A stretch of 64,000 nucleotides of DNA, from NCBI GenBank assembly GCA_964514105.1, contig CAZEPJ010000014.1, positions 1,889 to 65,888 on the forward strand. The letters are read 5' to 3'. The translations under genes and the position numbers were made by a program. A model generated the notes under the pieces. The model ran no database searches. It was not told the origin of the DNA and worked only from the letters and a program-made list of their open reading frames with translations. Positions 5,861 through 62,563 of the stretch are shown in pieces (positions within the stretch are counted from its first letter, which is position 1; each line of letters starts with the position of its first letter). The DNA is from an uncultured Desulfarculaceae bacterium. GTDB lineage: Bacteria > Desulfobacterota > Desulfocorpusculales > Desulfocorpusculum.

Positions 5861-6072
5861 GGGATGGCTCAGGGCCTCGACCTATCCCCTCCCCGCCGCA
5901 CCGGAGATAACGTTCCTGTATGGCCCGGGGCCTTCGGGTTACCATTTGGTATCCTTCCATCGGGGCAGATCTCGGGAAATCAAGGGGTTGGATCTGGCAC
6001 GGGCGTTGCATTACCGTCTGTGCGGGCCTCGATTGCGGGCCATGAACCTCGGGGCAGCGAGGGGAGATGGAC

Positions 6073-19109: not shown

Positions 19110-19139
19110 GGCGTCACCCCTCCTGCCCCCCCGCCCAAT

Positions 19140-19265
19140 CGTGATTGGCGGGTCGTGTCGTGGAAGATCGTCGGGCGTTGGGCGTGTGCGCGGTTCATGT
19201 GGACGTCGGACGCCCCGCCCCGTGGAACCCGACGAACCCATGGACCCGGGCAACCCAAGCAACCC
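19140..19265. repeat. Copy A, the most diverged, of a ~130-bp intergenic repeat element
   Basis: Shares the CGTGATTGGCG start, an internal GTTGGGCG, and the AACCCAAGCAACCC end with copies at 49898-50033 and 52712-52830. It lies 31 nt upstream of the minus-strand start at 19109. Confidence 0.4.
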
Positions 19266-19359
19266 AATTAACCCGCCAAGCCCGTGTCACCCCCTTCCCG
19301 GTCCACCCCTTCCCCACTCCCGCTCCGTTGCCGGTTGCCCGTTGCCTGCCGCCTGCCCC

Positions 19360-38336: not shown

Positions 38337-38376
38337 AAAAAAAAAACAGGGAAACCCATCATGGATTTCCCAGCAC
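38337..38376 (-). terminator. Rho-independent terminator after ssrA on the minus strand
   Basis: On the minus strand GGGAAA-N11-TTTCCC followed by T10 (plus-strand A10 at 38337-38346), directly after the tmRNA 3' CCA. Confidence 0.5.
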
Positions 38377-38387
38377 CGCTTTGAGGT

Positions 38388-38739
38388 TGGTGGAGGCGGC
38401 GGGAGTCGAACCCGCGTCCGGAAACCTTCAGCCAAGGCATCTACATACATAGCTCCTGTTTTGATCTCACCCGCCTCGGCTCCCAGGAGCAGGATCCTCG
38501 GCGGGCCAGCCTACTTGAATCTCGCCGCATCCCCTGCAGGCGTCAGGGATTTGGCCATCCCGCTGTTCGACGTCCTGTCCGGCCCCGCGGGCTGAACCGG
38601 AAGGACGTGGCCTTAAGCGGCCAGGGCGTAGTCGTAGTTGTCGGCGACTAACTTTGAGCCCTATCTGTTTAACGAGGGGATAGGAACCTCGGCATGCAGC
38701 CTTGACCTCAACTGTCCCCGTCGAAACCTTTTCGCCCCC
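38388..38739 (-). ncRNA. ssrA: tmRNA (ssrA, transfer-messenger RNA)
   Basis: The 5' end GGGGGCGAAAAGGTTTCGACGGGG and the 3' end …GGACGCGGGTTCGACTCCCGCCGCCTCCACCA (T-arm, acceptor stem with G3:U, CCA). Internal tag ORF AGUC|GCC GAC AAC TAC GAC TAC GCC CTG GCC GCT TAA, giving tag ADNYDYALAA. Length 352 nt. Confidence 0.85.
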
Positions 38740-38768: not shown

Positions 38769-38798
38769 ACTATAGCACTTGCCCCGGCCCGCCGACAA
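38769..38798 (-). promoter_or_regulatory. Candidate sigma70 promoter for ssrA (TTGTCG-18-TATAGT)
   Basis: The -10 TATAGT ends ~30 nt upstream of the mature tmRNA 5' end, consistent with a short RNase-P-processed leader. Confidence 0.35.
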
Positions 38799-39213
38799 GC
38801 CCAACCGCATTTGCGCTCCTGTCCATTTCGTCACGGGCGGCAAACAGGCTGCGGCAGCCCGATCTGCCTTCGTTTCACACCGCGGCGATCACCCTCTTGC
38901 CGCTCCCATGGGGGGGATGCTCGCCCTCCCGCGGCAAGGGAAACTGCCTGCTCGCCGGAAATGCATGTCTCATGGCTCTGCTGGGGAAGCAGGAGTCGGG
39001 GACCAAGGGCTCCCACCCCTTGCTGAAGGGTTGCCTCCGCTCTGGCACGCCTGTGTCTTATTGGTGAGTTGAGGTCAGAAAACGACATCGGCGGACATGC
39101 GACATAAGATGTTGTTATCAAAAGAACAAAAACTGGTCAAACCGTCATCAGCCAGAAGGCCTTCGTTACCATTATGTTATATCAACGACAATATTGGCCA
39201 AAGGAGGAGGCAG

Positions 39214-43234: not shown

Positions 43235-45697
43235 CTAGGGAAGGGGGGCCGTCGCCACGCCCCCGTTGCTGCTGCGCACGGTGACCCAGGGGGGTTTGAC
43301 CAGCACGTTCTTGAACTTGCGAGAATGACTCCGGGACTTCTTCTTGTACAACAGGTTCCCGAGGCCGTCAGCCCACAGGGTCACGCTTCCAGGGGTTGCG
43401 TTGGACTTGGCCCTGACCGTGAGGACCCTCTTCTTGTACTTGACTTGGGTCACGGTCACGGTGTCCGCCGCGTCCCCCACCCTCAGGGCCACCGACGCCG
43501 CAGATCCCCAAGCGCCGGTATGATCCCGGGCCCGAACCTGGAGGGTGTAGCTTCCGTTGGGCCACCCCGACACATCCACCTGGGTCCCGACGGATTCGAC
43601 CGACCCGCCCAACGCCCCGTCCAGGGGCGCCATGGCCGCCCCCGGCCCCTCCCTGGGATCCACCCACCACTCCACTTCCGCGATGGGCGAGCCGCCCGGG
43701 AGACCGGCCGTGGCGCTCAGGACCACCAGGGTCTGGCCGAGGGTGGGATTGGGCGACGCCGCCACGTCGAAGACGGTGGGCCCCGTGCGAGCGGGCGCCA
43801 CTGCGGGCCAAAGCCCGCCATGGGCCAGGCCGTACGATTCCCATTGCACAGGCACCTGGAATAGAGAGGGCATGCCCGCCGCGGCATCGTCAAAGGCCTC
43901 CAGCCATCCGCCCCCGCCCTTGCCCGGCCCCACCAGCACCTCATCTCGTCCGTCGCCGTCGAGATCTCCGGCGGCTGGATGTGTCTCGCCGGCCAGGCGA
44001 TTGTAGTCCGTCGCGCTCAAGGTGATCCAGGCCAGATGGGTCGGGTAGCCGTATGCGTAGTCCATGACCGCCACCCTCCCGCCGCCCCGTTTCCCCATGC
44101 CCAGAAGGATCTCGGCCCTGCCGTCCCCATCCAGGTCGGCGCAGGCGGGCCAGCTCTCTCCGTTGGCTGAGTTGTATTCCGCCCAGTCAATGGCCCCCCA
44201 GGCCAGGGGAAGGGCATCGCGGGTGACCACGAAGGCGCCGCCGGGCAGCGCGGCATTGCCCGATACCGGGCCCAGACCAAGGACCACCTCCCGCTCGCCG
44301 TCTCCGTCCACGTCCCCCGCAGCCGGCCGCACCTCGCCGCTGGCCGTGTTGTAGTCGTCCCAGTCCAACAAGAGCCACTCTCTGTGGGTGACAGCCCCTG
44401 CGGCATACTGAAAGACCTCGACGCGCCCCCCGCCCCCGGCCCCCAACCCTATGAGGATCTCGTCACGGCCGTCTCCGTCCAGGTCGCCGCAGGCCGGCCA
44501 GGTCTCCCCGTTGGCGGCGTTGTACTCGGGCCAGTTCACCTGTCCCCAGGCCAGATGGTTGTACTGGCTGTCCAGAATCAAGAACATGCCGTTGGGTATG
44601 GGCGGAGGCCCGGCTTCCCCCCGTCCCAGGCCCACCACGATCTCGGATTGCCCATCACCGTCCAGATCTCCCACAGCCACCCGGGCCTCCCCGCTCAGGG
44701 CCTCGTACTCGGGCCAGCCCAGTCGCAGCCAGAACTCATGGAATAGATCCTCACTCAGGAAATCGATGACTCCGCCCGCCGGGGGATACGGACCCAGGCC
44801 GGCGATGACCCGCCCATAGCCCACCGCCGACGACGCCGTCACCGTCACCGCCACCGTGGCGCTCCCCGTCCCCCCCCGGTTGTCCGTCACCGTCAGCCTC
44901 GCCGTATAACTCCCCGCCGAAACATACGTGTGGGACGGGTTCTGAACACTGGATGTGCCCCCGTCCCCAAACGTCCACGCATACGACGCAATGCTCCCGT
45001 CCGGGTCGCTCCCGCTCCCCGTGAACGCCACCGTCAGGGGCGAGGTCCCTGAAATCGGCGTCCCCGAGGCCGTCGCAATGGGCAGCTGGTTGGGCGCCGT
45101 CACCGTCACCGCCACCGTGGCGCTCCCCGTCCCCCCCCGGTTGTCCGTCACCGTCAGCCTCGCCGTATAACTCCCCGCCGAAACATACGTGTGGGACGGG
45201 TTCTGAACACTGGATGTGCCCCCGTCCCCAAACGTCCACGCATACGACGCAATGCTCCCGTCCGGGTCGCTCCCGCTCCCCGTGAACGCCACCGTCAGGG
45301 GCGAGGTCCCTGAAATCGGCGTCCCCGAGGCCGTCGCAATGGGCAGCTGGTTGGGCGCCGATGCTGTCGTATGGGAGATCTCTTCCGAAAACCCGCTTTG
45401 AAGGGCCTCGTAGTAGGCCTTCACTGCGAAGAAATACTGCTGTCCGTCGGCCAGATCCGTGAAGGTATAACTGGTGGTCTTGCCCACATCCAGGCTGAAG
45501 GTGTAGTTGCCGCTGGAGGTCCCGCGAAAGACGATGTATCCCGAGATCGGCTCGGGATTCGGGTCCCAGGCGAGCGTGACCGGGTCAGCCCCCCGGGCCT
45601 CCCAGGGCATGGCCCCGGCCAAAGCCAGGAGCGCCAGGGCTGCTCCCCCGAGCCGGCGGCCCCACAGGTCCCCAACACGGCGAAGAAGAGATCTCAT
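43235..45697 (-). CDS. Large secreted protein of 820 aa: FN3-like domain, two identical PKD domains, FG-GAP/VCBS-type repeats, and a C-terminal beta-rich region
   Basis: Signal peptide with RR. VTLAWDPNPEPISGYIVFRGTSSGNYT FN3 signature. Two 87-aa PKD units identical at both protein and DNA level. Five or more repeats of …GDLDGDG(R/Q)(D/A/S)E(I/V)… (FG-GAP-like). Confidence 0.8.
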   Translation of the reverse strand: MRSLLRRVGDLWGRRLGGAALALLALAGAMPWEARGADPVTLAWDPNPEPISGYIVFRGTSSGNYTFSLDVGKTTSYTFTDLADGQQYFFAVKAYYEALQSGFSEEISHTTASAPNQLPIATASGTPISGTSPLTVAFTGSGSDPDGSIASYAWTFGDGGTSSVQNPSHTYVSAGSYTARLTVTDNRGGTGSATVAVTVTAPNQLPIATASGTPISGTSPLTVAFTGSGSDPDGSIASYAWTFGDGGTSSVQNPSHTYVSAGSYTARLTVTDNRGGTGSATVAVTVTASSAVGYGRVIAGLGPYPPAGGVIDFLSEDLFHEFWLRLGWPEYEALSGEARVAVGDLDGDGQSEIVVGLGRGEAGPPPIPNGMFLILDSQYNHLAWGQVNWPEYNAANGETWPACGDLDGDGRDEILIGLGAGGGGRVEVFQYAAGAVTHREWLLLDWDDYNTASGEVRPAAGDVDGDGEREVVLGLGPVSGNAALPGGAFVVTRDALPLAWGAIDWAEYNSANGESWPACADLDGDGRAEILLGMGKRGGGRVAVMDYAYGYPTHLAWITLSATDYNRLAGETHPAAGDLDGDGRDEVLVGPGKGGGGWLEAFDDAAAGMPSLFQVPVQWESYGLAHGGLWPAVAPARTGPTVFDVAASPNPTLGQTLVVLSATAGLPGGSPIAEVEWWVDPREGPGAAMAPLDGALGGSVESVGTQVDVSGWPNGSYTLQVRARDHTGAWGSAASVALRVGDAADTVTVTQVKYKKRVLTVRAKSNATPGSVTLWADGLGNLLYKKKSRSHSRKFKNVLVKPPWVTVRSSNGGVATAPLP
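44834..45355. repeat. Perfect tandem duplication (2 x 261 bp) inside the large secreted-protein gene, encoding two identical PKD domains
   Basis: Positions 44834-45094 and 45095-45355 are identical base for base (checked at anchors: GCCGTCACCGTCACCGCC at 44835 and 45096, GCTCCCC at 44861 and 45122). The period is a multiple of 3. Confidence 0.85.
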
Positions 45698-48944: not shown

Positions 48945-49829
48945 TCACCGCTTGCCCTTGGCCGGCTTCCCCCCGTACGGTTCGCCCCCGTAGTACGCCT
49001 TGTACGCGTACCCGTAAATGCGGGACGTGAGGTGCTGGGAGTCGTTGAGGATGAGGCCCAGGATCTTGTCTTTGGGCAGGAGGGTCAGGGAGTCCTTGAC
49101 GGCGTTGCGCGGGGTCATATCGTGCCGCACCACGAACACGATCCCCTGAACCAGCTTGGCCAGCACGGCCGGCTCGTTGGTCAGGATCGTCGGGGTCGCG
49201 TCCAGCAGGGTGAGCGGCCCGTCCTCCGTCTCGTTTGCCGCCCGTATGAGGTCGGCCATGCGGGGCGAGGAGATGAGCTCGATGGGGTTCTTCTTGCGCC
49301 CCCCCCCCGGGATGCACTGCAGTCGGGGGATGTCCGTGGGGCGAACCACGGCCGACAGCTCCGCCTCGCCGTTGAGGTACTCCGAGAGCCCAGGCCCCTG
49401 GGGCACGCCGAAGTATTGGTGAAGGGTCGGGTTTCGAACGTCGCAGTCTACCAGAAGCACCGAGTCGTTCAGCCCCTGGGCCACGCTCACGGCCAGGTTG
49501 GCCGCGATGAAGGACTTGCCCTCGCCGGCGATGGCGCTCGTGACCATCACGCTTCGGGGGGGGACGGGCCTGCGGGCGTTGTGAAGGAGGTGGGTGCGGA
49601 TCCGCTTGATCTGCTCCACGATGGGGGAGTCCGGCTGGTTGTGGACGACCAGCATGGGGCTCACGCGCCTCGCCCCGGGCCTCTCGGGCTGGATCATGAG
49701 GGGAAGGACCGGGGCCTCGGCCCGCGCGTTTCCGGCATCGCCCCCCGCTGCGGCCGCGTCCTTGACCTGCGAAGGGGCTTCGCCCCGCTCCCGCTCCGCC
49801 TTCTGCAAAGCCTCAAACACCTTGCTCAT
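48945..49829 (-). CDS. PEP-CTERM-locus exopolysaccharide tyrosine autokinase (TIGR03018-like)
   Basis: Begins MSKVFEALQKAERERGE…, Walker A SAIAGEGKSFIAANLA, and a C-terminal Tyr-rich tail …RIYGYAYKAYYGGEPYGG…. Confidence 0.75.
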   Translation of the reverse strand: MSKVFEALQKAERERGEAPSQVKDAAAAGGDAGNARAEAPVLPLMIQPERPGARRVSPMLVVHNQPDSPIVEQIKRIRTHLLHNARRPVPPRSVMVTSAIAGEGKSFIAANLAVSVAQGLNDSVLLVDCDVRNPTLHQYFGVPQGPGLSEYLNGEAELSAVVRPTDIPRLQCIPGGGRKKNPIELISSPRMADLIRAANETEDGPLTLLDATPTILTNEPAVLAKLVQGIVFVVRHDMTPRNAVKDSLTLLPKDKILGLILNDSQHLTSRIYGYAYKAYYGGEPYGGKPAKGKR

Positions 49830-49897
49830 GGACCCATCCTTCTGTCACCGCCGCAGACCGGGATTCGTGGGCCGTTCTTGTGGTTCGTTTCACAACC

Positions 49898-50033
49898 CGT
49901 GATTGGCGACCGTGATACGTGTCTGTCGTTTGTTTTCGTATGCCATGGTTGGGCGCCTGCGCTGCGTGGTTCGAGTCCGTATCAAGCCCCCCAACCCACC
50001 GAACCCAACCAACTCAAGCAACGCAAGCAACCC
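49898..50033. repeat. Copy B of the ~130-bp intergenic repeat element, with a partial extra copy at 49861-49897
   Basis: ~80% identical to copy C along its whole length (CGTGATTGGCGACCGTGATACGTGTCTGTCGTTTGTTTTCGTATGCCATGGTTGGGCG…CAAGCCCCCCAACCCACCGAACCCAA…). It lies 69 nt upstream of the minus-strand start at 49829. Confidence 0.55.
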
Positions 50034-50050
50034 CTACTCCCTCTCCCGCT

Positions 50051-51091
50051 CTACACCCCCGAGCCCAGACCCCACTTGGAGAGGATCTCCTGGAGCCCCC
50101 GGGCCACGGGCTCGGGCACCTGACGGGGAAAGATCATGGCCAGGGCCACCGCCGCCACCAGGGCCGCGCCCCCGGCCAGACCCAGGCGCACGGACCATCG
50201 CAGCAGATGCGCCCGCGCATGGCCGCGGCCGTCCAAGGCCCCTTCCTCGCGGATCCGTTGCCGCTTCTTCCCGGCCGATACCAGCCTTTCCCCCTCCAGG
50301 TCCGCGATCACGTCCCGGATCACGGCGTCATCGACCTGCCGCTTCTCCTCGGCGTACCCGGTCAGCAGGGCGTTGTCGCACACCACGTTGATGAGCCTGG
50401 GGATGCCCCCCGCGTACTTGTGGATCCTTCCCACGGCCTTTTCGGTGAACAGCGGCGCGCCGTGGCGGCCGGCCACCGCAAGGCGCCGCTCGATGTACTC
50501 CCGGGTCTCCCGCCCGCTCAGTGGATTGAGCACGCAGCGCAGGCTGATGCGCTGTTTGAACGGGGCCGCGCTTCGGTAATTGAGAATCTGGTGCAGTTCG
50601 GGCTGTCCGGCGAGGATCACCTGGAGGAGCTTGTCATGGGCCGTCTCCAGATTCATGAGCATTCGAACCTCCTCCATGAGGGGGAGGCTCAGGTTGTGGG
50701 CCTCGTCCAGAACCAAAAGGGCCCGATCGCCCCTCTCGGCCGTCTCCAGGAGGAAGGCATTGAGTTTGTCCAGAAACTGCCCCTTGCTCCCCGACCTGGC
50801 CTTGAGCCCGAAATCCGCGGCCACCAGGCGGAAGAAGTCCGTGGGGCTCAGTTTGGGGTTGAAGAGGTATGCCGAGCGGGTCCTGGGGTCGAGCACCTGA
50901 AGGAGCGACCTGAGCAGGAGGGTCTTCCCCGTGCCCACCTCTCCGGTCAGCACCATGAGGCCCTTCTTCTCCTTCACGCCGTACAGCAGGGTGGCGAAGG
51001 CCTCCTTGTGCTGGCTGCTGGCGTACAGGAAATGGGGGTCGGGCGTGATCTCGAAGGGCTTCCGCTCAAGGCCGTAGAATTCCTCGTACAT
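50051..51091 (-). CDS. PEP-CTERM-locus AAA ATPase (ExeA-like; TIGR03015-like)
   Basis: Begins MYEEFYGLERKPFEITPDPHFLY…, Walker A LTGEVGTGKTLL, Walker B LLVLDEAH. Confidence 0.75.
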   Translation of the reverse strand: MYEEFYGLERKPFEITPDPHFLYASSQHKEAFATLLYGVKEKKGLMVLTGEVGTGKTLLLRSLLQVLDPRTRSAYLFNPKLSPTDFFRLVAADFGLKARSGSKGQFLDKLNAFLLETAERGDRALLVLDEAHNLSLPLMEEVRMLMNLETAHDKLLQVILAGQPELHQILNYRSAAPFKQRISLRCVLNPLSGRETREYIERRLAVAGRHGAPLFTEKAVGRIHKYAGGIPRLINVVCDNALLTGYAEEKRQVDDAVIRDVIADLEGERLVSAGKKRQRIREEGALDGRGHARAHLLRWSVRLGLAGGAALVAAVALAMIFPRQVPEPVARGLQEILSKWGLGSGV

Positions 51092-51138
51092 GGGATCGGT
51101 TCTTCTCCACCGTGGCGCGCCCCCCGGGGAGACGGGGC

Positions 51139-52683
51139 TCACGCGCTTCGGGCCCTCCTGGTGGCCGCCGAGCTCCGGGTCCTGCCGCCCCCGGCCTTCC
51201 CCACGGTCTCGATCCTGGGGATCACGGCCAGCACCTGCAGCCCGCTGAAGGCCGCCAGGTCCTCGGGGTCCTTGAACGAGCGGTCCAAGTACTCTTGGAG
51301 GAGGGCCAGGCCCAGCCCGGCCCCCAGGCCGCAGGCCAGGGACAGGGCGATGAGCTTTAGGATGTCGGGCTTCCACGGTTTGACGGGGACCTGCGCGGGA
51401 TCGATGACCCGGAACTGCTCTCCTTGCTGGCGCTGCTCCATGGCCTTGGCCTGCTCCGACTCCAGCTTCTTGGCCAGGAGCGACTCGTAAGACTTCTTGG
51501 TGTTCTCGTAGTCCCGGGCCAGGGCGGTCATCTCCTGCTCGCGCCTGGGCGTATTCTCGATGCGCTGCTCGTGCTCGCGGATGCGCGCCCGGATCTTCTC
51601 CTCCTCGCCCCGGAGGTGCCGGATCTCCGAGTCCACGGCGGCGAGCTGAGCCTGGAGGCCGGCGATCATGGTGTCCAGCTGCCCGGTCTGGCCCCGGGCC
51701 GTTCGAATCTGGCGGGCGGGCCGATCCGGCGAAGACGCCCCCGAGGCCCTTGGACCCCCCGCCTGCGCCCCCTCTTCCTCCAGCCGCTTCTTCAGGGCCA
51801 TCACCTCGGGATGTCTGTCCGTGTACTTGGCGCGGAGCCTGGCCAGGGCATCCTGCAGGGTCTCCCTTCCCGACTGGGGCGCCTCCACGATGACGGGCTC
51901 ACCGGTTCCTTCGGTGGAGGCGAACTTCCTCAGCTCGGCCACCTGGTTGATGTACAGGACCTTGCGATCCTCGGCCGACCGGATGCTGTCGCTGATCCGC
52001 TGGTGCTGGAGCTGGAGCTGCTGGAGCACGCCCAGATTGGCCTGCATCTGCTCCGGGAGCTCCCCCATGTGCCTGGTCTTGAACGCAGTGATCTGTTTTT
52101 CCAGCCCCTCGAGCTGGGCCTCCGTCTTCTTCAACTGGTCGGCCAGGAAGGCTGCGGTCCCCTCGGCCTGCTGCTCCCGCAGCTTGAGGTTCTGCTCCAC
52201 GAAGAGGGAGGCGAGCCGGTTGGTCACCATGGCCACTGTCTTGGGCTCGGGTCCCGAGAAATAGACCTCGAAGGCGTCCTTCTTGTCCCGCTTGGCCGCG
52301 CCGGTCCCTCCCTTGACCTGGATGTCGATGTGCTTGCGCATCAGCTCGATGACCTCTTCCTGGGTCAGTTTCTGGGACTCGGCCTTGTACAGGCCGAACT
52401 CGTCGATGACCCGCTGGAGGTTGGTCCGGCTCAGGATCTCCGTGCTGATGCTGTAGATGCGCTCGTCGATGGATTCGGTCACCGTGGCGCGGACATACTC
52501 GGTGGGGACGCGCTGCCGGACCAGGAGGATCAACGTGTTGGCCTGGTACACCTTGGGCAGGTGCATCACGATGCCGATGCCCGCGGCGCTGACCAAGACG
52601 AAGGGGATCAGGATCCACCACTTGCGCCGCCACGCCATGGCGAGGTAGTCCTCGGGCCTCAGAGGCCTCGCAAGGTTCAACAT
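51139..52683 (-). CDS. PEP-CTERM-locus polysaccharide chain-length determinant (GumC/EpsF-like, TIGR03007-like)
   Basis: N-terminal TM (WWILIPFVLVSAAGIGIVM), a long coiled-coil periplasmic region, and a C-terminal TM (LIALSLACGLGAGLGLALL). Confidence 0.75.
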   Translation of the reverse strand: MLNLARPLRPEDYLAMAWRRKWWILIPFVLVSAAGIGIVMHLPKVYQANTLILLVRQRVPTEYVRATVTESIDERIYSISTEILSRTNLQRVIDEFGLYKAESQKLTQEEVIELMRKHIDIQVKGGTGAAKRDKKDAFEVYFSGPEPKTVAMVTNRLASLFVEQNLKLREQQAEGTAAFLADQLKKTEAQLEGLEKQITAFKTRHMGELPEQMQANLGVLQQLQLQHQRISDSIRSAEDRKVLYINQVAELRKFASTEGTGEPVIVEAPQSGRETLQDALARLRAKYTDRHPEVMALKKRLEEEGAQAGGPRASGASSPDRPARQIRTARGQTGQLDTMIAGLQAQLAAVDSEIRHLRGEEEKIRARIREHEQRIENTPRREQEMTALARDYENTKKSYESLLAKKLESEQAKAMEQRQQGEQFRVIDPAQVPVKPWKPDILKLIALSLACGLGAGLGLALLQEYLDRSFKDPEDLAAFSGLQVLAVIPRIETVGKAGGGRTRSSAATRRARSA

Positions 52684-52711
52684 GGGTCATGCCCCTCGTA
52701 CACGGGAAATG

Positions 52712-52830
52712 CGTGATTCGTGACCGTGATTCGCGTCTGTGGTTCGTTTTCGTGTACCATCGTTGGGCGTTCGGCGCGTGAACTGCGTGGTCCGTGTCAA
52801 GCCCCCCAACCCACCGAACCCAAGCAACCC
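52712..52830. repeat. Copy C of the ~130-bp intergenic repeat element
   Basis: CGTGATTCGTGACCGTGATTCGCGTCTGTGGTTCGTTTTCGTGTACCATCGTTGGGCG…CAAGCCCCCCAACCCACCGAACCCAAGCAACCC. It lies 29 nt upstream of the minus-strand start at 52683. Confidence 0.55.
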
Positions 52831-52841
52831 GCGCCCCGCCC

Positions 52842-53426
52842 CTACGGCACCACGATGGTGTCCCCGGACCTGAGGATCACGTTGTCAGCCAGCGTGTCCC
52901 CCGAAACCACGTCCTTGTAATGGATGACCCTTCGGCGCTGCTTGTCGCCGTCCCGGGTGATGAGCACGGTCTTGCTGGATGCCCACTCGTTGAGCCCCCC
53001 GGCCATGGCGATGGCCTGCAGATAGGTCAGCTCCGTGCTCGACTCGTACGTCCCCGGTTTGGTGACGTTCCCCAGGACGTAGACCTTGAACTTCCTGGGC
53101 TCCTTGATGATGACCGAGACCTGGGGCTCTCCCACGAACTCCTTGAGCTTCTCTGCGATGACCTTCTTGAGCTCGGGCGGCGTCAGGCCGGCGGCCCGCA
53201 CATCGTCGATGAGCGGGAGCGAGATCTTGCCGTCTCCCCGGACCAGCACCTCCCGGGTCAGGTCCGTCTCCTTCCAGATGTGGATCTCCAGCTTGTCCTC
53301 GGGCCCGATGACGTAGGTGTCGTCCGCGCCGGATCCCCTGGAAGGGCCCTGCGCCGACGCCGCTGAGACCAGCATGAGCGTCGCGAGGAGAGCAATGACC
53401 CCCAGTCCCTTGCCGACTTTGGCCAT
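52842..53426 (-). CDS. Polysaccharide export protein, Wza-like (PEP-CTERM-locus export protein, TIGR03027-like)
   Basis: Signal peptide MAKVGKGLGVIALLATLMLVSAASA. Poly_export motif …YVIGPEDKLEIHIW…GKISLPLIDDVRAAGLTPPEL…, and a SLBB domain. Confidence 0.75.
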   Translation of the reverse strand: MAKVGKGLGVIALLATLMLVSAASAQGPSRGSGADDTYVIGPEDKLEIHIWKETDLTREVLVRGDGKISLPLIDDVRAAGLTPPELKKVIAEKLKEFVGEPQVSVIIKEPRKFKVYVLGNVTKPGTYESSTELTYLQAIAMAGGLNEWASSKTVLITRDGDKQRRRVIHYKDVVSGDTLADNVILRSGDTIVVP

Positions 53427-53828
53427 GGCGCCTTCCCCTTTTCCATGTCGTGTGTATCCGCCCCAGGCAACCCCAAGCGACGGCCTTTCCCAGGGCCTCC
53501 GCCCTTGGGGAGACATCCCGTGCCCGGCCTTATTTATTTGTTTTTCCTTCATGAATTCGTAATCTCCCAGAATTTTCCCTGGGAGTCAATCAAAACTTAC
53601 CGGATTCCGACCTCAGGAAATCCCTGACTTCCCCGGCCGCCCACCGCGATCCGGGCCATGGTGAGACACAGGGCATGTCCCGTTACCCCCGAGCCGGCAA
53701 GGAGATGCCCTCCAGAATCTTAACAGGTTTCGGAGGAAATGGCGCAGATATGTTGAAAAGACTTGCAAAACATGTCCGAATGCGGTATTGAAGCATGGGG
53801 GCGTCTTGCGCGCCCCAGAGGGGTGCTC

Positions 53829-55490: not shown

Positions 55491-56414
55491 ATGCAGGTCA
55501 CGGCGCACGTTGACAAGAGGGACGTGCTCTTTCTCGCCTTCACGGCCGCCTTCGCCCTCGTCTTTCTGGATCTCTGGCGGGAGTTCTTCTCCTTCCTCCT
55601 GGGCTCGGGTCTGTACAACTACATGGTCCTCATCCCGGGGGTCAGCGCCTATCTCCTGATCTCCGACCGGCGGCGCCTCCGGGCCGCGGCCCGCAGCGCC
55701 GTGCCCCTGGGCGCAGCCCTGGCAGCGGCCGGGGCCCTGGGTCTGGCGGCGGCCCAGGCCCAGGGCGCATGGCCGGCCCCCGACGACCGTTTCTCCCTGG
55801 TGGGGGTCTCTTTGCTCCTGATCTGGGTCGGCGGGTTCGCGGCCATGTACGGGCCCAGGGCCCTGCGCGCGGCCATCTTCCCCCTGCTGTTCCTCCTCTT
55901 CATGGTTCCCGTTCCCGGCGGCGCCCTGGAAGGGGTGATCCGGTTTCTGCAGGTGGGGTCCACCGAGGCGGCCCACGCCCTTTTCGCCCTGAGCGGCGTC
56001 CCGGTCCTCCGGGAGGGGTTCGTGTTTCACCTGCCCGGCCAGAGCATCGAGGTGGCCCCCGAGTGCAGCGGCATCCGCTCGGGGATCTCCCTGGTGGTGA
56101 CCTCCGTCCTGGCCGGCCACCTGTTCCTGCGCACCCTGGGGGGCAAGCTCGCCATGGCCGTGGCCACCCTCCCCGTCACCATGTTCAAGAACGGGGTGCG
56201 GATCGTCTCTCTCTCCCTCCTGGGGGTGTACGTGGATCCGCGCATCCTGCAAAGCGAACTGCACCGGAGCGGGGGCATCCCCTTCTTCGTGGTGGCCCTC
56301 CTCATGATGGTCCCCGTGTGGTGGGGGCTCCGGACCCTGGAGAAGCGACTGGGCGGCAAGGAGCCCGGCGCGCCGGCCGGGGGCACGGCGAAGGGGCCGG
56401 GAGGGGCGGAATGA
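55491..56414 (+). CDS. xrtA: Exosortase, XrtA-like
   Basis: Eight predicted TM helices. Catalytic-region motifs …APECSGIRSG… (conserved Cys) and …NGVRIVSL… (conserved Arg). Its TGA overlaps the prsK ATG (ATGA). Confidence 0.8.
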   Translation: MQVTAHVDKRDVLFLAFTAAFALVFLDLWREFFSFLLGSGLYNYMVLIPGVSAYLLISDRRRLRAAARSAVPLGAALAAAGALGLAAAQAQGAWPAPDDRFSLVGVSLLLIWVGGFAAMYGPRALRAAIFPLLFLLFMVPVPGGALEGVIRFLQVGSTEAAHALFALSGVPVLREGFVFHLPGQSIEVAPECSGIRSGISLVVTSVLAGHLFLRTLGGKLAMAVATLPVTMFKNGVRIVSLSLLGVYVDPRILQSELHRSGGIPFFVVALLMMVPVWWGLRTLEKRLGGKEPGAPAGGTAKGPGGAE

Positions 56415-58537
56415 GCCTGAATGCCGCCCTCTCCCTGGTGGGGGCCTCCCTGGGGGCTTCCGCGGCCCTCTTGGCCCTGTGGCGCCACCCCCGGGGCTTC
56501 GTGCACCGGGTCTTCGCCCTTGGGATGGGGGCCCTGGGGGCCGAGGCGGTCCTCCTGGCCCTGGCCCACGAGGCCCCGTCGCCCGGCGGCGTTCTGGACC
56601 TGGAGCGGTGGCGGGCCCTGGTGGCGGCCCTCTTGCCGGGGATCTGGCTCCTGTTCAGCCTGAGCTTCGCCCGGGATCAGCACCGGGAGTTCCTCCGCCA
56701 ATGGCGATGGGTCATCGCGGGGGCCTTTGCGGCCCCCCTGGCCCTGGCCGCGGCGGGGCGGCCCTGGCTCCTGGGCCCCGAGGCCGTCAGGGACCCCGAG
56801 ACGGGCTGGGTGGTGTTCCTGGGGTGGGCGGGGTCGGCCCTGGCCGTCGTCGCCGTGCTGCTCACGGTGCTGGTGCTCATGAACCTGGAGCGGACCCTCC
56901 GGGCGGCCACGGGCCACGGCCGCTGGCAGCTCAAGTTCATGGTCCTGGCCGTGGGCGGGCTCCTGGCCCTCCGCGTGTACACGGGCAGCCAGGCCCTCCT
57001 GTTTCACAGCGTCAGCATCCCGCTTCTGCTGGTGCACGGCCTTGCGCTGATCCCGGCGGCGGCGTTGATTTTCCTCGGCTTCCAGAGGGCCCGGGTCATG
57101 GCCCTGAGCCTGCGGGTGTCCCACAGCGTGCTGCAGGGATCCGTGACCCTGATCATCGTGGGCGCCTACTTCCTGGGGGTGGGCCTCCTGGCCAAGCTGC
57201 TCTTGTGGCTCGACGCGGCCCAGGACCTCTCCTCCCGGGTCCTGTTCATCTTCCTGGCGCTGTGCGGGCTCATGCTGCTTTTGCTGTCCGACCGGGTACG
57301 CTACCGCACGAGGCGCTTCGTCGCCCGGCACTTCCACAGGAGTCGACACGACTATCGCCGCATCTGGAGCGACTTCTCCCGGCGCACCGCAGCCCTGGTG
57401 GACCCGGACGAGGTGTGCCGGGAGGTGGCGGGGATCCTCTCCGAGGCCTTCGAGGCCCTGGCTGTCCATCTGTGGATGGCCGAGGGCGACGGGGCGCGGC
57501 TGCGCCTGGCCGCCTCCACGGCGCAGGGAGCAGGGCTCCTTCGGGACCTCGAGGGCATCCGGGCGGCGGTCCAGGACGCGGCCGGGGCCCTGGACGACCG
57601 GGATGGGCCCGCGGACCTGGCCGACCCCCGTGCCCAGTGGGCCCTGGAGCTCATGGCGCGCCGCGGGGAGGCGTTGGACGCGGCCGGGATCCGCTACTGC
57701 GTGCGGCTCGCCGCGGGCGATGAGCGGGTGGGCCTGATCAGCCTGGGCAAGCGGGTCAGCGACGCGCCCATGGACGCCGAGGACATGGACCTCCTCAAGA
57801 CCCTGGCCGACCAGACGGCGGCCACCCTCCTGAACCGGAGACTGGCCGAACGGCTCAGGCAGGCCAGGGAGATGGAGGCCTTCCAGTCCATGTCGGCCTT
57901 CATGCTCCACGACCTCAAGAACCTGGGCAACAAGCTGTCGCTCACCGCCCAGAACTTCCCCGTCCACTTCGAGAACCCCGATTTCCGCAGGGATGCGGCC
58001 CGGGTGATGGAGCAAAGCGTGGAGAAGATCAAGGGGCTGTGCGGCCAGCTCGCCCTCCTGCGGCAGACCCTGGAGCTCCACCGATCCAGGACGGACCTCA
58101 ACGCACTGGTCCGGCAGGCCGTTGGCGAGCTGGACGGGCTGCTCGGTGCCCGCGTGGAGCTGGATTTGGGGGAGCTTCCCCCCCTCGACCTCGACCGTGG
58201 GCAGCTCCAAAAGGCCCTGGTCAACCTCATCGCCAACGCCAACGACGCCGTGGGGAAGGCCGGGGAGATCCGGGTCAGCACCCGCCTCGAGGATGGGGCC
58301 GCGCTCCTCTCGGTGTGCGATAATGGGTGCGGCATCCCCCGGGCGTTCCTGGAGAAGTCCCTGTTCCGTGCCTTCCGGACCACCAAGAAGCAGGGAATGG
58401 GGATCGGCCTGTTCCATGCCAAGGCCATCGTGGAGGCCCACGACGGAAGGATCGAGGTGGAAAGCGAGGAGGGCAAGGGAAGCCGTTTCAGGATCGTCCT
58501 GCCGCTGGAAAGCAAGCGCCAGGCCGGTGAGAGGTGA
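56411..58537 (+). CDS. prsK: PEP-CTERM-system sensor histidine kinase PrsK
   Basis: Multi-TM N-terminal region, GAF-like middle, H-box …FMLHDLKNLGNKL…, and an HATPase_c domain (…NLIANANDAV…DNGCGIP…GMGIGLF…). Confidence 0.8.
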   Translation: MSLNAALSLVGASLGASAALLALWRHPRGFVHRVFALGMGALGAEAVLLALAHEAPSPGGVLDLERWRALVAALLPGIWLLFSLSFARDQHREFLRQWRWVIAGAFAAPLALAAAGRPWLLGPEAVRDPETGWVVFLGWAGSALAVVAVLLTVLVLMNLERTLRAATGHGRWQLKFMVLAVGGLLALRVYTGSQALLFHSVSIPLLLVHGLALIPAAALIFLGFQRARVMALSLRVSHSVLQGSVTLIIVGAYFLGVGLLAKLLLWLDAAQDLSSRVLFIFLALCGLMLLLLSDRVRYRTRRFVARHFHRSRHDYRRIWSDFSRRTAALVDPDEVCREVAGILSEAFEALAVHLWMAEGDGARLRLAASTAQGAGLLRDLEGIRAAVQDAAGALDDRDGPADLADPRAQWALELMARRGEALDAAGIRYCVRLAAGDERVGLISLGKRVSDAPMDAEDMDLLKTLADQTAATLLNRRLAERLRQAREMEAFQSMSAFMLHDLKNLGNKLSLTAQNFPVHFENPDFRRDAARVMEQSVEKIKGLCGQLALLRQTLELHRSRTDLNALVRQAVGELDGLLGARVELDLGELPPLDLDRGQLQKALVNLIANANDAVGKAGEIRVSTRLEDGAALLSVCDNGCGIPRAFLEKSLFRAFRTTKKQGMGIGLFHAKAIVEAHDGRIEVESEEGKGSRFRIVLPLESKRQAGER

Positions 58538-60054
58538 TGGACATGGCTCGCGAATCCGCATCCCCGCCCCCTTCCCCCCCGGACAGACCCAAGCTGCTGG
58601 TGGTGGAGGACGACGAGGAGCTGCGCTCCCAGATGAAGTGGGCCCTGGGCCGGGAGTACCACGTCTTGACGGCCGAGGACCGGGTCGGCGCCCTGGAGAT
58701 CCTGAGGGCCGAGGAGCCCGCCCTGGTGACCCTGGACCTGGGGCTGCCGCCCGACCCGGCGGGCGCCGAGGAGGGCTTTCGGACCCTGACCGACCTCCTG
58801 GCCCTGACCCCCCACGCCAAGGTGGTGGTCATCACCGGCCGGGCGGAGCGGGAGAACGCCCTGAGGGCCGTCGCCCAGGGGGCATACGACTACTTCTCCA
58901 AGCCCATCGAGATCCAGGACCTCCGGGTGGTCCTGGGGCGGGCCCTGTACCTGCACGGCGTGGAGGCGGAGAACCGGCGGCTCAGGGCCGCCTCCTCCCA
59001 GGACGCCTTCGAGGGGATGCTGGGCGCCAGCCAGCCCATGCAGGAGGTGTTCGCCAAGATCCGCAAGGTCGCCACCACCGAGGCCCCCGTGCTCCTGGTG
59101 GGCGAGAGCGGCACGGGCAAGGAGCTGGCCGCCAGGGCCATCCACCGGCTGGGTCCCCGGGGCCGGGGGCCGTTCGTGGCCATCAACTGCGGGGCCATCC
59201 CCGAGACGCTCCTGGAAAGCGAGTTGTTCGGCCACGAGAAGGGCTCTTTCACGGGCGCCCACGTGCAGAGAAAGGGGCGGGTGGAGATGGCCCAGGGCGG
59301 GACGCTCTTTTTGGACGAGGTGGGCGAGCTGTCCCCCATGCTCCAGGTCAAGCTCCTGCGGTTCCTCCAGGAACAGCGAATCGAGCGGGTGGGCGGGAGG
59401 GAGGAGATCGCCATCGACGCGCGGGTCATGGCGGCCACCAACGCGGACCTCCAGAAGGCCATGGAGGAGGGGCGCTTCCGCCAGGACCTGTACTACCGGC
59501 TGGGCGTGGTGGTCATCGCCCTCCCCCCCCTGCGGGAGCGCCCCGGGGACGTGGAGCTCCTGGCCAGGGCCCTGGTGGAGAAGTTCTCGGTCGAGGGCCG
59601 CAAGCGCATAACGGGATTCACCGCCGCGGCGCTCAAGGCCATGGTCCAGCACAGGTGGACGGGCAACGTGCGGGAGCTGGAAAACCGCCTCAGGAGAGCG
59701 GTGATCATGGCGGAGGGGACCCGGCTCACCCCCGAGGACCTGGAGCTGGCCTCCAAGTACGCCAGGTACGAGGGGCTGGGGCTCAGGGAGGCCAGGGAGG
59801 GCCTGGAGCGGGAGTTGATCCTCCAGGCCGTGGCCCACAACCAGGGCAATCTCACCCAGGCCGCCGCAGACCTGGGCATCAGCCGGCCGACCCTCTACGA
59901 TCTCATGGACATGCGGGGGATGGGGAATGGCGGGGGGTTGGGGGGGGGGGGGGGGGGGGGGGCGGTGGGGGAAGAGAAGGTCAGGGGGACCCGGGGCGAC
60001 GGACACCCATCGGGGGAGAGACCATGTCGAATGCGGAAAGCAAGGCGGCGGTGA
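58534..60054 (+). CDS. prsR: PEP-CTERM-box sigma54-dependent response regulator PrsR (Fis-type HTH)
   Basis: Receiver domain (LLVVEDDEELR…LDLGLPP), sigma54 AAA+ domain (GESGTGKE…GSFTGA…), and a C-terminal HTH (…LTQAAADLGISRPTLYDLMDM). The ORF then runs through a 23-G homopolymer, which adds a Gly-rich tail up to the stop at 60052-60054. Confidence 0.85.
   Translation: MMDMARESASPPPSPPDRPKLLVVEDDEELRSQMKWALGREYHVLTAEDRVGALEILRAEEPALVTLDLGLPPDPAGAEEGFRTLTDLLALTPHAKVVVITGRAERENALRAVAQGAYDYFSKPIEIQDLRVVLGRALYLHGVEAENRRLRAASSQDAFEGMLGASQPMQEVFAKIRKVATTEAPVLLVGESGTGKELAARAIHRLGPRGRGPFVAINCGAIPETLLESELFGHEKGSFTGAHVQRKGRVEMAQGGTLFLDEVGELSPMLQVKLLRFLQEQRIERVGGREEIAIDARVMAATNADLQKAMEEGRFRQDLYYRLGVVVIALPPLRERPGDVELLARALVEKFSVEGRKRITGFTAAALKAMVQHRWTGNVRELENRLRRAVIMAEGTRLTPEDLELASKYARYEGLGLREAREGLERELILQAVAHNQGNLTQAAADLGISRPTLYDLMDMRGMGNGGGLGGGGGGGAVGEEKVRGTRGDGHPSGERPCRMRKARRR
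59940..59962. repeat. Homopolymeric poly-G tract (23 consecutive G) at the 3' end of prsR, 61 nt upstream of the prsT start
   Basis: Read directly: …ggcggggggttg + g23 + cggtggggg…. Reading the 23 G in the prsR frame gives L+7xGly+A. Confidence 0.9.
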
Positions 60055-62387
60055 GGGGCCATGACGCCTCCGGGCGGCTCGTGACCGGCGGTCCGCGGCG
60101 TCCCGGGGACAAGGGACGCGGGCTTCGGTTCATCCTCGTGGCCAGCGCCGCTTTGGTCCTGGCGCTGGCCGGGTGCGGCGACGCCCGGTCCAAGAAGGCC
60201 AGGCACCTGGAGCGGGGGGACGCTTATTTCAAGGAGGGCAAGGTCAACGAGGCGGTCATCGAGTTTCGAAACGCGGTCAAGATGGACCCCAAGGACCCCC
60301 GGGCCCACCATTGGCTGGGCCTGTCCTATCTGCGGAGCGGCAATTTGCGGGACGCCTTCTCGTCCCTGACCGAGGCCGTCCGTCTCGACGAGAACCTGCT
60401 CGACGCCCAGGCCCAGCTGGGCCGCATGCTCCTTCTCGCGCGGGACCTCCCCAAGGCGCGGGAGAAGGCCGATCTCATCCTGGGAAAGGACCCCCGGCAC
60501 GTGGAGGCCCGTCTCCTCATGGGGGACATCCACCTGGCGGAGGGCAAGCCGGACCAGGCCCTGGGGGAGCTGCTGGCGGCCGTGGACCTCGACCCCAAGC
60601 GGGCGGAGCTGGAGATAAAGCTGGCGGGCGTCTACACCCTCAAGGGCGATTTCCCCAAGGCCGAGGAGGCCCTCAAGGAGGCCTTGAACAAGGACGAGAA
60701 ATCCATCCAGGCCCGCCTGGCCCTGGCCAACTTCTACCTGGGGCGGAACCGGCCGCAGGACGCGGAGCGGGAGTTCGGCAGGGCCCTGGAGCTGGAGCCC
60801 AGGAACCTGGCCGTGGCGGCGAGCCTCGCCAACCTGCACCTGCGTGCCAACCGGCCCGAGGAGGGCGAGCGGGTCCTTCTGGCCGCGGCCGATCGGTCGC
60901 CCAAGGAGGCCGGCCCCCAGCTGGCTCTGGGGGACTACTACACCGCCTGGCACAAGCCCGACAAGGCCGAGGCGGCTTACAGGCGAGCCATCGAGGTGGA
61001 TCCCCGCAACACCCCGGGCCGGCAGAAGCTGGCGGCCCTTCATCTGAACCGAGGGGAGCGGGAGGCGGCGGAGAAGTACGTGGACGAGCTCCTCAAGATC
61101 AACCCCCAGGACCTGGACGGCCTGATCCTCCGCGGCCGGCTGCTCCTGAGCCGCAGGCAGCACGAGGAGGCCGTGGCCCAGTTCCAGAGGGTGGTCAAGG
61201 AGGCCCCCCAGAACCCCATGGCCCACTACTTCCTCGGCCTGGCCTTGGTGGGCAAGGGGGATGTCCAGCAGGCCAAGGGCGCCCTTTTGAAATCCGTGGA
61301 GCTCAATCCCAGGCTGGGGGAGGCGCGGATGCTGCTGGTGGACCTGCACCTGCGGGCCGGGGCCGCCGACGAGGCGCTGGCCGAGGCGCGCAGGATGGCG
61401 GAGACCGACGGCCGCAGCTGGCGCGCCCAAGCCACCCTGGGGCGGGTGCACCTGGCCCGGCGGGACGGCGACAGCGCCAAGAAGGCGTTCGAGGAAGTGA
61501 CCCGCCTGGCCCCCCAAAACCCCCTGGGCTATCACTACCTGGGGCGGCTGGAACTGGCGGAAAAGCGGTACCCGGAGGCGTCCGCCATGTTCGAGAAGGC
61601 CCTGGCCCTGAACCCCGGCGACGCGGGCTCCATGCGCATGCTCGCGTACGCCCATGTGCTGCAGGACGACCGGGAGGGGGCCCTCCGGCGGGTCGATCAG
61701 CAGCTGGGCAAGGCCCCGGACAACCCGGCCTTCCACCAGATCAAGGGGAACCTGCTTTTCGACCAGGGAAGGCGCAAGGAGGGGGAGCAGAGCCTCAAGC
61801 GGGCCATCGAGCTGGCCCCCGGCGACCCGGTCTACTACGAGAACCTGGCCTCCATCTACGCCATGCAGAACCGCCTGGACGAGGCCGTGGCCGAGTTCAA
61901 GGCGGCGGTGGAGAAGGATCCCAGGTCGGTGCGGGCCTGGATGTCCCTGGGCGTGCTGCACCAGCAGAGGAAGGCCCTGGACGCTGCCAGGGAGGCGTAC
62001 AGGAAGGTCCTGGGCCTGGAGCCCAACTTCGTTGCTGCAGCCAACAATCTGGCCTGGCTCGAGGTGGAGCACGGGGGCAACGTGGACGTGGCGCTGGGCC
62101 ATGCCCAGCGGGCCAAGGAGGCGGCCCCCGACCACCCGTCCGTGGCCGACACCCTGGGGTGGATCTACTACCACAAGAAGGTCTACGCCACGGCCCTGGG
62201 GCACCTGAGCGAGGCGGCGGAGAAGATGCCGGACAACCCCACCGTCCGCTTCCACCTGGGCATGACCCACGCCAAGATGGGAAAGAAGGAGGACGCCCGC
62301 CGGGAGCTGGAGCGGGCCCTGGAGATCAACGGTGCCTTCCCCGAGGCCCAGCGCGCCCGGGATGCCCTGAAGGAGCTGGGGAACTGA
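60024..62387 (+). CDS. prsT: PEP-CTERM-system TPR-repeat lipoprotein PrsT
   Basis: RBS GGGGGAGAG before the ATG (MSNAESK…). Lipobox LALAGCGD. About 18 TPR-like repeats along 788 aa. Confidence 0.8.
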   Translation: MSNAESKAAVRGHDASGRLVTGGPRRPGDKGRGLRFILVASAALVLALAGCGDARSKKARHLERGDAYFKEGKVNEAVIEFRNAVKMDPKDPRAHHWLGLSYLRSGNLRDAFSSLTEAVRLDENLLDAQAQLGRMLLLARDLPKAREKADLILGKDPRHVEARLLMGDIHLAEGKPDQALGELLAAVDLDPKRAELEIKLAGVYTLKGDFPKAEEALKEALNKDEKSIQARLALANFYLGRNRPQDAEREFGRALELEPRNLAVAASLANLHLRANRPEEGERVLLAAADRSPKEAGPQLALGDYYTAWHKPDKAEAAYRRAIEVDPRNTPGRQKLAALHLNRGEREAAEKYVDELLKINPQDLDGLILRGRLLLSRRQHEEAVAQFQRVVKEAPQNPMAHYFLGLALVGKGDVQQAKGALLKSVELNPRLGEARMLLVDLHLRAGAADEALAEARRMAETDGRSWRAQATLGRVHLARRDGDSAKKAFEEVTRLAPQNPLGYHYLGRLELAEKRYPEASAMFEKALALNPGDAGSMRMLAYAHVLQDDREGALRRVDQQLGKAPDNPAFHQIKGNLLFDQGRRKEGEQSLKRAIELAPGDPVYYENLASIYAMQNRLDEAVAEFKAAVEKDPRSVRAWMSLGVLHQQRKALDAAREAYRKVLGLEPNFVAAANNLAWLEVEHGGNVDVALGHAQRAKEAAPDHPSVADTLGWIYYHKKVYATALGHLSEAAEKMPDNPTVRFHLGMTHAKMGKKEDARRELERALEINGAFPEAQRARDALKELGN

Positions 62388-62563
62388 GGCCTCGCCGCGC
62401 GCCCCGCAGGCGGCCCGCGCCCCCTTACGGACCTTCCCAACCCAAGGGACCCGACAGACCCAACCACCAAAAAGATCGTTCGTCGTCAAACAAAAAGTGC
62501 GTGTCTTCTTGGATGTACCGCCCCCTTGTCCGCTCCCTCGCCACGGTCGTCCCCAAGATCCAC

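Follow-up and report, generated by a model that had tools for sequence, protein, structure and literature searches.

Short intergenic repeats at operon junctions of an uncultured Desulfarculaceae bacterium: a candidate family of transcribed spacers

What is the non-coding element of ~130-190 nt that recurs between neighbouring genes in the genome of an uncultured Desulfarculaceae bacterium? The stretch analysed here, referred to as the window, comprises 64,000 nt of assembly GCA_964514105.1 (contig CAZEPJ010000014.1, positions 1,889 to 65,888), has a G+C content of 67.2% and contains three copies of this element, designated a, b and c. Copies a and b reside in an XrtA/PEP-CTERM exopolysaccharide (EPS) locus, and copy c follows an acyl-CoA dehydrogenase (ACAD) gene. 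A preliminary description of this DNA proposed a promoter/operator module, a conserved leader or riboregulator, or a small non-autonomous repeat. The comparisons below point to a family of small dispersed intergenic repeats, lineage-specific, oriented and non-palindromic, which would be co-transcribed with the operon as a spacer between its genes, a reading with about an even chance of being correct.

Three copies and the junctions they occupy

Copies a and b are homologous over their full length, as initially described at ~80% identity. In the local alignment, 97 of 123 columns match (78.9%; 88.2% when gap columns are left out). One 27-nt block, TTGGGTTCGGTGGGTTGGGGGGCTTGA, is free of differences and includes CTTGAYA in both copies, and indels separate the two in the middle of the element. 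The status of c as a diverged copy is borne out by a nhmmer profile built from a, b and the strain variant of a (JGI contig L003), leaving c out, which matches c at E=2.4e-4 and finds nothing besides the copies below E=9 in the window. A degenerate signature, matching a, b and c by construction because it is derived from all three, has no further match in the window and none in shuffled sequence (0/100 shuffles). The copies recur with identical flanks in independent metagenome assemblies, c being identical in three other metagenome contigs, and the elements are therefore real sequence rather than assembly artefacts.

Each copy occupies the junction of two co-directional minus-strand genes and lies in the sense orientation (3/3), in agreement with the common orientation relative to the downstream gene noted at the outset. 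The elements start 14, 3 and 72 nt past the upstream stop codon in a, b and c, respectively, and end just before the downstream Shine-Dalgarno (SD) sequence. The earlier placement immediately upstream of the gene start, at 29-69 nt, is right as to the proximity of the ATG, but it does not give the real ends, and it leaves out that the copies also begin shortly after a stop codon (3-72 nt). Part of copy a's 69-nt gap, 49856-49890, is taken up by a second partial 3' module, whose score against copy b is reached by one of 500 shuffles. Because this module belongs to copy a, the elements end 26, 28 and 30 nt ahead of the ATGs at 49829, 52683 and 19109.

A fourth, rearranged fragment suggested at ~62440-62540 finds no support as a copy. 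It gives E=4.1 with the a+b+c profile, and its alignment scores are reached by 8-36 of 300 mononucleotide shuffles. Because it has only the 9-nt periodic G-rich run in common with the copies, and its scores lie marginally above those of shuffles, it is not counted as a member and is referred to as locus d. The DNA collections scanned for further copies lacked the source genome. The degenerate signature gives four matches in metagenome contigs, all unrelated on reading, and 78 single matches in genome contigs of unrelated taxa, among which blastn detects no homology. Scans of viral contigs and blastn of plasmids reveal no further copy, nor does the 1.2 kb added beyond the window's left edge (contig L096). 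As a sequence family, the elements are without match in any collection searched, and the kind to which they would belong, the small dispersed intergenic repeat, is already known.

The junctions in related organisms indicate how the copies may have arisen. The source organism is known solely from metagenomes and occurs in JGI samples 3300037501, 3300037465, 3300043177 and 3300043267 and in SRA run SRR12686701; identical proteins are found on JGI and Logan contigs, all of at most 10 kb, and exact look-ups of the Wzz protein and the PEP-CTERM protein yield no contig. The nearest homologues of two window proteins show 57-69% and 62% identity, and named matches, at ~46% identity, belong to Thermodesulfobacteriota or Syntrophales. 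Gene order is nevertheless kept, as export-GNVR-ATPase-kinase in the relatives L086, L088 and L090 and as MtaB-HDAC-ACAD-DinB in the relative L095. The junction from export to GNVR measures 158 nt here and 28 and 45 nt in relatives, that from ATPase to kinase 221 nt compared with 91, 93 and 15 nt, and that from ACAD to DinB 250 nt compared with 10 nt in L095 (TGAGGAGGGGAACATG), relative to which an extra block of ~222 nt (~19130-19351) surrounds c. The 158-nt junction that holds copy b reads TAGGGGCATGACCCATG in its reconstructed empty form. Gene lengths agree with those of relatives (514 versus 514-518, 294 versus 291-301 and 259 versus 259 amino acids), which indicates that the junction boundaries are right, and the relatives' DNA (~64 kb) contains neither a nhmmer match to the element nor a 9-mer array. 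Since the three junctions are tiny and element-free in syntenic relatives, the copies appear to be lineage-specific insertions, and on the simplest reading this lineage acquired the three elements by insertion into operon junctions that were very short. A contig of JGI sample 3300075153, which carries the highest-scoring homologue (57% identity), has an ATPase-to-kinase junction of 443 nt as opposed to 15-93 nt elsewhere, and may contain an insertion there, unrelated or related.

The PEP-CTERM EPS locus recognised in the preliminary description is confirmed by NCBIfam as an XrtA/PEP-CTERM EPS locus, with PrsK (55769-58537) and a TIGR03016 outer-membrane protein adjoining the EPS genes. Coordinates of the copies, their parts and the flanking genes are collected in Table 1.

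Table 1. Positions of the three copies, their component parts, locus d and flanking genes in the window.
Feature	Position	Strand	Location or composition	Basis
Copy a	core 49898-50036, plus extra partial 3' module 49856-49890	(-)	between XrtA-associated ATPase gene (stop 50051-50053) and tyrosine autokinase gene (ATG 49827-49829)	nhmmer E=3e-42 for core (a+b+c profile); genes by Pfam, NCBIfam
Copy b	52712-52838	(-)	between PEP-CTERM polysaccharide export gene (stop 52842-52844) and XrtA chain-length determinant gene (ATG 52681-52683)	nhmmer E=8.7e-36
Copy c, diverged	19140-19287	(-)	between ACAD gene (stop 19360-19362) and DinB/MDMPI-family gene (ATG 19107-19109)	nhmmer profile built without c matches 19140-19267
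G-rich array (GGGTTNNNN)n of copy a	49984-50033	(-)	one unit absent in L003	TRF period 9, 3.6 copies
G-rich 9-nt array of copy b	52799-52830	(-)		motif scan
G-rich 9-nt array of copy c	19226-19283	(-)	longest of the three	motif scan, TRF
A+C-rich 3' half of copy a	49898-49950	(-)	A 34%, C 34%, G 23%, T 9%	half-split composition
A+C-rich 3' half of copy b	52712-52765	(-)	direct repeat CGTGATTCG x2 at 52712-52733
Locus d, G-rich 9-mer run GGGTCTGTCGGGTCCCTTGGGTTGGG	62433-62463	(-)	between convergent ends of TPR gene and PEP-CTERM protein gene
XrtA/PEP-CTERM polysaccharide export protein	52842-53552	(-)		Pfam, NCBIfam
XrtA chain-length determinant	51139-52683	(-)		Pfam, NCBIfam, above curated cut-off
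XrtA/PEP-CTERM-associated ATPase	50051-51091	(-)		Pfam, NCBIfam
XrtA-associated tyrosine autokinase	48945-49829	(-)		Pfam, NCBIfam
DinB/MDMPI-family gene	18330-19109	(-)		Pfam, NCBIfam

Anatomy of the element

In sense reading, the element has a bipartite architecture, with a G+T-rich 5' half (G 43-46%, T 21-32%) and an A+C-rich 3' half (A 24-36%, C 33-46%, T 8-9%). The 5' half is composed largely of 9-nt periodic units, (GGGTTNNNN)n. The corresponding motif GGGTTNNNNGGGTT, with at most one mismatch, occurs 16 times in the window compared with 5.3 expected (0/100 shuffles), and 13 of the 16 matches fall in loci a, b, c and d, all 13 on the minus strand. The 3' half ends in a and b with a direct repeat of 13-nt spacing, (C)GWATCACGGTCRCSAATCACG, which in a appears as CGTGATTGG/CGTGATACG at 49898-49919 in plus-strand reading. 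The repeat CGTGATTSG-N4-CGTGATWCG of the preliminary description is present in both a and b; c has one good unit only.

The compositional bias of the two halves is extreme for this window. The keto skew of the elements falls in the 99.5-99.99th percentiles, and the two most G-rich, C-poor sense-strand 60-nt windows of the 64 kb lie at the distal ends of a and c. In the 3' half, the unpaired probability predicted by local RNA folding of the complete minus strand averages 0.593 in a, the 99.6th percentile of minus-strand 50-nt windows, and 0.584 in b, the 99.4th percentile.

The elements also evolve in a repeat-like manner. The number of 9-nt units varies among the copies and by one indel between strains, the strain variant L003 having one unit fewer; the 3' module is doubled in a, and the 13-nt unit is doubled in a and b and not in c. 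The variant (L003:125-330, JGI sample 3300037465) differs from window positions 49830-50080 by eight substitutions and the deletion of one 9-nt unit in ~240 nt, with no difference across the adjacent 885-nt kinase coding sequence. Four of the substitutions have an aligned position in copy b, and three of these carry b's base. This pattern around copy a suggests gene conversion between copies, or an unusually fast decay of a in the window's strain.

Some sequence is also common to the flanks. The 5' flanks of a (50041-50049) and c (~19310-19318) have the 9-mer GAGCGGGAG in common, which may be an extension of the element. The ~222-nt block absent from L095 also holds a heptamer array (CCGTTGC x3.1, plus-strand reading, 19325-19346), on the stretch that separates copy c from the ACAD stop codon. 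The GCAAC units of this array are the inverse of the element's GTTGC units, and a perfect 9-bp inverted repeat connects 19247-19255 with 19333-19341.

The periodic G-rich array raises the question of whether it is itself the functional unit, forming a G-quadruplex (G4) just past the stop codon, either in the mRNA or in non-template DNA, with the remainder of the element as a passenger. Canonical motifs (G3+N1-7 x4) are present on the sense strand in b, c and locus d, the array of c sitting in the window's longest G4-type motif run (19213-19321). The G-over-C skew and the variable unit number, among copies and between strains, are in keeping with this idea. However, copy a has no canonical motif, its loop measuring 24 nt, such motifs show no enrichment in so GC-rich a window (49 observed versus ~40 expected), and the conserved ~90-nt non-repeat body is left unexplained, rendering a G4 unit with a passenger remainder very unlikely.

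The suggestion of a small non-autonomous repeat of MITE or REP type proves correct in part. A dispersed repeat is the best-supported kind, with junctions of 158-250 nt here and 10-93 nt in relatives, but the structure is unlike that of either type. A classical MITE (miniature inverted-repeat transposable element), or a palindromic element of the REP/ERIC type, would be mobilised in trans by a transposase and would here have degenerated terminal inverted repeats. The size of 130-190 nt, the intergenic site and the empty sites in relatives fit such an element, and c possesses a 14-nt end pair, CGTGATTGGCGGGT / ACCCGCCAAGCCCG, that is 86% complementary. On reading the sequence, the units CGTGATTGG (proximal) and GTTGCTTGG (distal) agree in inverted arrangement at 6/9 positions, and each block is flanked by short direct repeats: GGGGCAGG at 19352-19359 and 19122-19129 around c, AGGGGC at 52838-52843 and 52691-52696 around b, and AGAGGGA/AGAAGGA at 50038-50044 and 49837-49843 around a. 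These repeats are suggestive of target duplication and not statistically convincing.

The tests of symmetry speak against this class. The score of the element against its own reverse complement is reached by 66-186 of 300 shuffles that keep the composition of each half, the RNA folds are no more stable than those of shuffles, and the ends of a and b carry no terminal inverted repeats. All copies have one orientation relative to genes, which is unexpected for MITEs (n=3), and no transposase gene is noticed among the ~40 window open reading frames (ORFs) scanned with Pfam or NCBIfam. A degenerated element of MITE or REP/ERIC type is accordingly quite unlikely, and the palindrome, MITE and attC readings are rejected on the inverted-repeat and self-complementarity tests. 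For an integron attC site, GTTGGGY and GCCCAAC are both present, but in reverse order (GTTRRRY first) and in a non-palindromic element. No integrase is noticed among the same ~40 ORFs, and the flanking genes are conserved syntenic operon genes.

Promoter and leader readings

The regular placement ahead of start codons would suit an internal promoter/operator module, dependent on an alternative sigma factor or an activator, in which the CGTGATTSG repeats serve as operator and transcription starts near the 3' end, leaving a leader of 26-30 nt. The constant distance of the 3' ends from the ATG corresponds to a usual leader length, the direct repeats lie at the gene-proximal end, CTTGAYA falls in the 27-nt block on which a and b agree throughout, and TGGTATACG in a3 (strain L003) resembles an extended -10 element.

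The promoter signals themselves, however, are missing. A check for sigma70 sites (-35/-10 hexamers, 16-18-nt spacer) finds none of at least 9/12 in any copy, a and b being covered on either strand, although it picks up the canonical tmRNA promoter as a positive control. Reading of the sequence shows the TTGAC(A/T)-like distal hexamer of the preliminary description, but no -10 partner for it at a spacing of 16-18 nt; the candidate -10 is without the conserved final T. Sites for sigma54 (GG-N10-GC, TGGCAC-N5-TTGC) with up to two mismatches do not occur inside a or b, consistent with the earlier failure to find a convincing one; the only nearby two-mismatch match, TGACACGGGCTTGGC at 19275-19289, lies at the distal edge of c with its GG broken (TGAC for TGGC). 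Inspection by eye for sigma32- and ECF-type consensus sequences shows nothing conserved between a and b.

Further properties argue in the same direction. Indels between a and b shift the spacing of the conserved blocks, the 13-nt repeat spacing is out of step with the DNA helical repeat, and the chain-length determinant, the tyrosine kinase and the DinB-like protein have no obvious shared regulon. The constant distance to the ATG is also explained by sparing of the SD in an originally tiny junction. The proposed promoter/operator module is therefore not supported, with neither a sigma70 or sigma54 site nor a -10 partner and with indels between a and b, and is considered unlikely. A CRP-like TGTGA-N6-CCACA is confined to the second module of copy a and is taken as chance. 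Intrinsic terminators are likewise absent from the elements.

Standard signals occur elsewhere in the window. The tmRNA gene (38388-38739, minus strand, Rfam 198 bits) has a canonical extended -10 sigma70 promoter at 38769-38798 (TTGTCG-18-TGcTATAGT) and a strong intrinsic terminator at 38349-38371, indicating that the organism uses such signals and providing an internal control. A perfect sigma54 consensus, TGGCACGGGCGTTGC, is located at 5995-6009 (+), 58 nt upstream of an 88-residue ORF (6067-6333), and is the window's only zero-mismatch sigma54 site.

Control of the downstream gene at the RNA level, by a structured riboswitch-like leader or by a small leader peptide, is highly improbable. 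RNAalifold predicts a 7-bp stem, GUUGGGU/GCCCAAC, with one compensatory change from U-A to C-G in c. It is based on three independent sequences, however, and its register is ambiguous in the 9-nt repeats; a 7-bp stem with a single compensatory change is too little for a structured RNA. Rfam gives no match in the elements, either at gathering threshold in the window, where the tmRNA gene is the sole match, or at E up to 10 in 49700-53000 and 18900-19600. Minimum free energy z-scores range from -1.0 to +0.8 on either strand, with no significant fold. The conserved leader or riboregulator entertained earlier is thus not supported by Rfam, by fold stability or by covariation, which is limited to one stem.

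The case for a peptide begins with an ATG-started small ORF shared by a and b (M-x-x-E-N-x-x-Q-T-R-I-T-V-x-N-H), and in b and c the stop of a small ORF overlaps the downstream ATG. The small ORF has no SD, though, the a/b differences fall at first, second and third codon positions as 3/2/3 with no third-position excess, and the ORF of c is in a different frame relative to the conserved AATCACG. The leader peptide is rejected on these three points.

Known repeats, possible effects and other features

Several known repeat systems resemble the element in part. The closest match in behaviour is with the mycobacterial interspersed repetitive units (MIRUs), co-transcribed repeats of operon junctions that are missing at the orthologous site in M. 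leprae (PMC3184786, summarising Supply et al. 1997). Like them, the element is a small non-coding repeat in operon junctions with an empty orthologous site in related species, its co-transcription being inferred; short direct repeats flank the filled sites, and the number of internal units varies. Co-directional junctions, sense orientation and empty sites in relatives are found for all copies, with n=3 and distant relatives. MIRUs, in contrast, are 40-100-bp units arranged as tandem minisatellites, with small ORFs overlapping the flanking genes at their stop and start codons. Tandem units of 40-100 bp are absent from the element, its small ORFs have no conserved frame or coding signature, and it consists of a 9-nt microsatellite-like array and a ~90-nt unique body, with no conserved ORF and no sequence similarity to MIRUs.

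The G4-forming (GGGNATC)n repeats of Xanthomonas and Nostoc lie just past stop codons (Rehm et al. 2015, PMC4692102). They are, like the element, G-rich and periodic on the coding strand, within 50 nt after the stop and between aligned ORFs, with strain-variable unit number and unknown function. The array occupies this position in a and b, 14 and 3 nt past the stop. It differs in its imperfect 9-nt unit, in which only GGGTT is conserved, as opposed to a perfect heptamer, and in being part of a longer element with an A+C-rich tail, and its G4 is only predicted, with a motif in b, c and d and not in a.

The ERIC/IRU and REP sequences of enterobacteria are found in transcribed intergenic operon regions or untranslated regions and can alter the stability of flanking mRNA (PMC3184786). 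ERIC is similar in size (~127 bp) and in its transcribed intergenic location. ERIC and REP, however, are imperfect palindromes that form stem-loops and occur in both orientations, whereas the element shows no significant self-complementarity and is sense in 3/3 copies. Geobacter genomes, from the same broad group as the source organism (Desulfobacterota, former Deltaproteobacteria), contain many multicopy intergenic families (Aklujkar et al. 2009, PMC2700814), among them elements in which a heptanucleotide is repeated four times in tandem. These families are likewise lineage-specific, short, multicopy and intergenic, with unknown function, and some have short GC-rich tandem repeats; they share no sequence similarity with the element, their heptanucleotide elements also occur inside genes, and they are based on dozens of copies, as against three here.

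A number of observations weigh against a family of dispersed, co-transcribed repeats. Only three copies are known, all from 64 kb, and their sense orientation in co-directional junctions (3/3) is weakly significant (roughly 0.03-0.1). The empty sites are defined without base-resolution alignment because the relatives are distant (57-69% amino acid identity), and loss of the element in those relatives is formally possible. Hallmarks of transposition are absent, a and b having no terminal inverted repeats, and the flanking direct repeats are SD-like, 6-8 nt, of unequal lengths and set in G-rich flanks, with a chance probability of ~0.07 at best by rough hand estimate. The unstructured tail is weaker in copy c (82nd percentile), and the G4 potential is not distinctive because G4 motifs are common in a window of 67% GC.

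If the copies are dispersed repeats, they would have arisen by insertion, through transposition or recombination, into very short operon junctions, and would have survived only where the stop codon and SD stayed intact. With neither promoter nor terminator in the element, it is most likely transcribed within the operon mRNA, as an untranslated intercistronic spacer, and any effect would then act on RNA. On general grounds of translational coupling, lengthening of the junction from a few tens of nt to 158-250 nt should abolish termination-reinitiation, so that the spacer would break the coupling of adjacent cistrons. The G4-capable 9-nt array, placed at the upstream cistron's 3' end, may act as a 3'-end or pausing structure, in analogy to REP as a stabiliser of mRNA (PMC3184786) and to G-rich repeats that follow stop codons. 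The A+C-rich, T-poor and unusually unstructured tract of 50-100 nt right before the SD could offer ribosomes a single-stranded landing or standby site, RNase E an entry site or Rho a loading site. Expression of the chain-length determinant relative to the tyrosine kinase within the XrtA EPS operon would change as a result. These specific effects on RNA are much less certain than the spacer role of the repeat, and a neutral passenger is equally possible.

A more far-reaching proposal is that of a new oriented, non-palindromic mobile intercistronic module, inserted specifically between stop and SD by a mechanism that might be single-strand- or RNA-mediated and functioning as a two-part RNA device that re-tunes operon stoichiometry. 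Protection or pausing of the upstream cistron would fall to the G4 9-nt array, and recruitment of ribosomes, RNase E or Rho to the long unstructured A/C platform. Such a module is a long shot; were it real, the chain-length determinant and the tyrosine kinase, which set EPS polymer length, would be re-tuned.

For the dispersed repeat, the significance depends on its activity. As a passenger, it would be a further lineage-specific family of small repeats, helpful mainly for telling strains apart and as a caution when genomes are assembled and annotated in an uncultured and deep-branching lineage that is related to Thermodesulfobacteriota. If active at the RNA level, it would indicate that a short mobile spacer can uncouple translation and shift expression inside a conserved XrtA/PEP-CTERM EPS operon, in which polymer length should respond to how much chain-length determinant there is relative to tyrosine kinase. 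The unexplained pattern of G-rich repeats just past stop codons would, in addition, gain both a lineage and a repeat unit that are new to it.

The window holds other repetitive sequence. A 40-nt run with 84% G at 59932-59971 (+), inside the long TPR-protein ORF 58122-62387, represents its most extreme G/C skew. A perfect tandem duplication of 261 bp (44834-45355), consisting of two 100% identical copies of 87 codons each, sits in an 820-residue PKD/FG-GAP/fn3 surface-protein ORF (43235-45697, minus strand) and is either a very recent in-frame event or an assembly artefact. A second non-coding repeat family, unrelated to a, b and c, is present at 10990-11097 and 38851-38958 (+), with 72-77% identity over ~108-200 nt and a core, GCGGCAGCCCGATCYGCCTTCGYTTCMCACCG..GCGATCACC, that includes a small hairpin. 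Of its two sites, one separates a pair of minus-strand genes and the other sits just upstream of the promoter of the tmRNA gene. The 11-mer TTCGTTTCACA is common to this second family and to the proximal flank of copy a (49885-49895).

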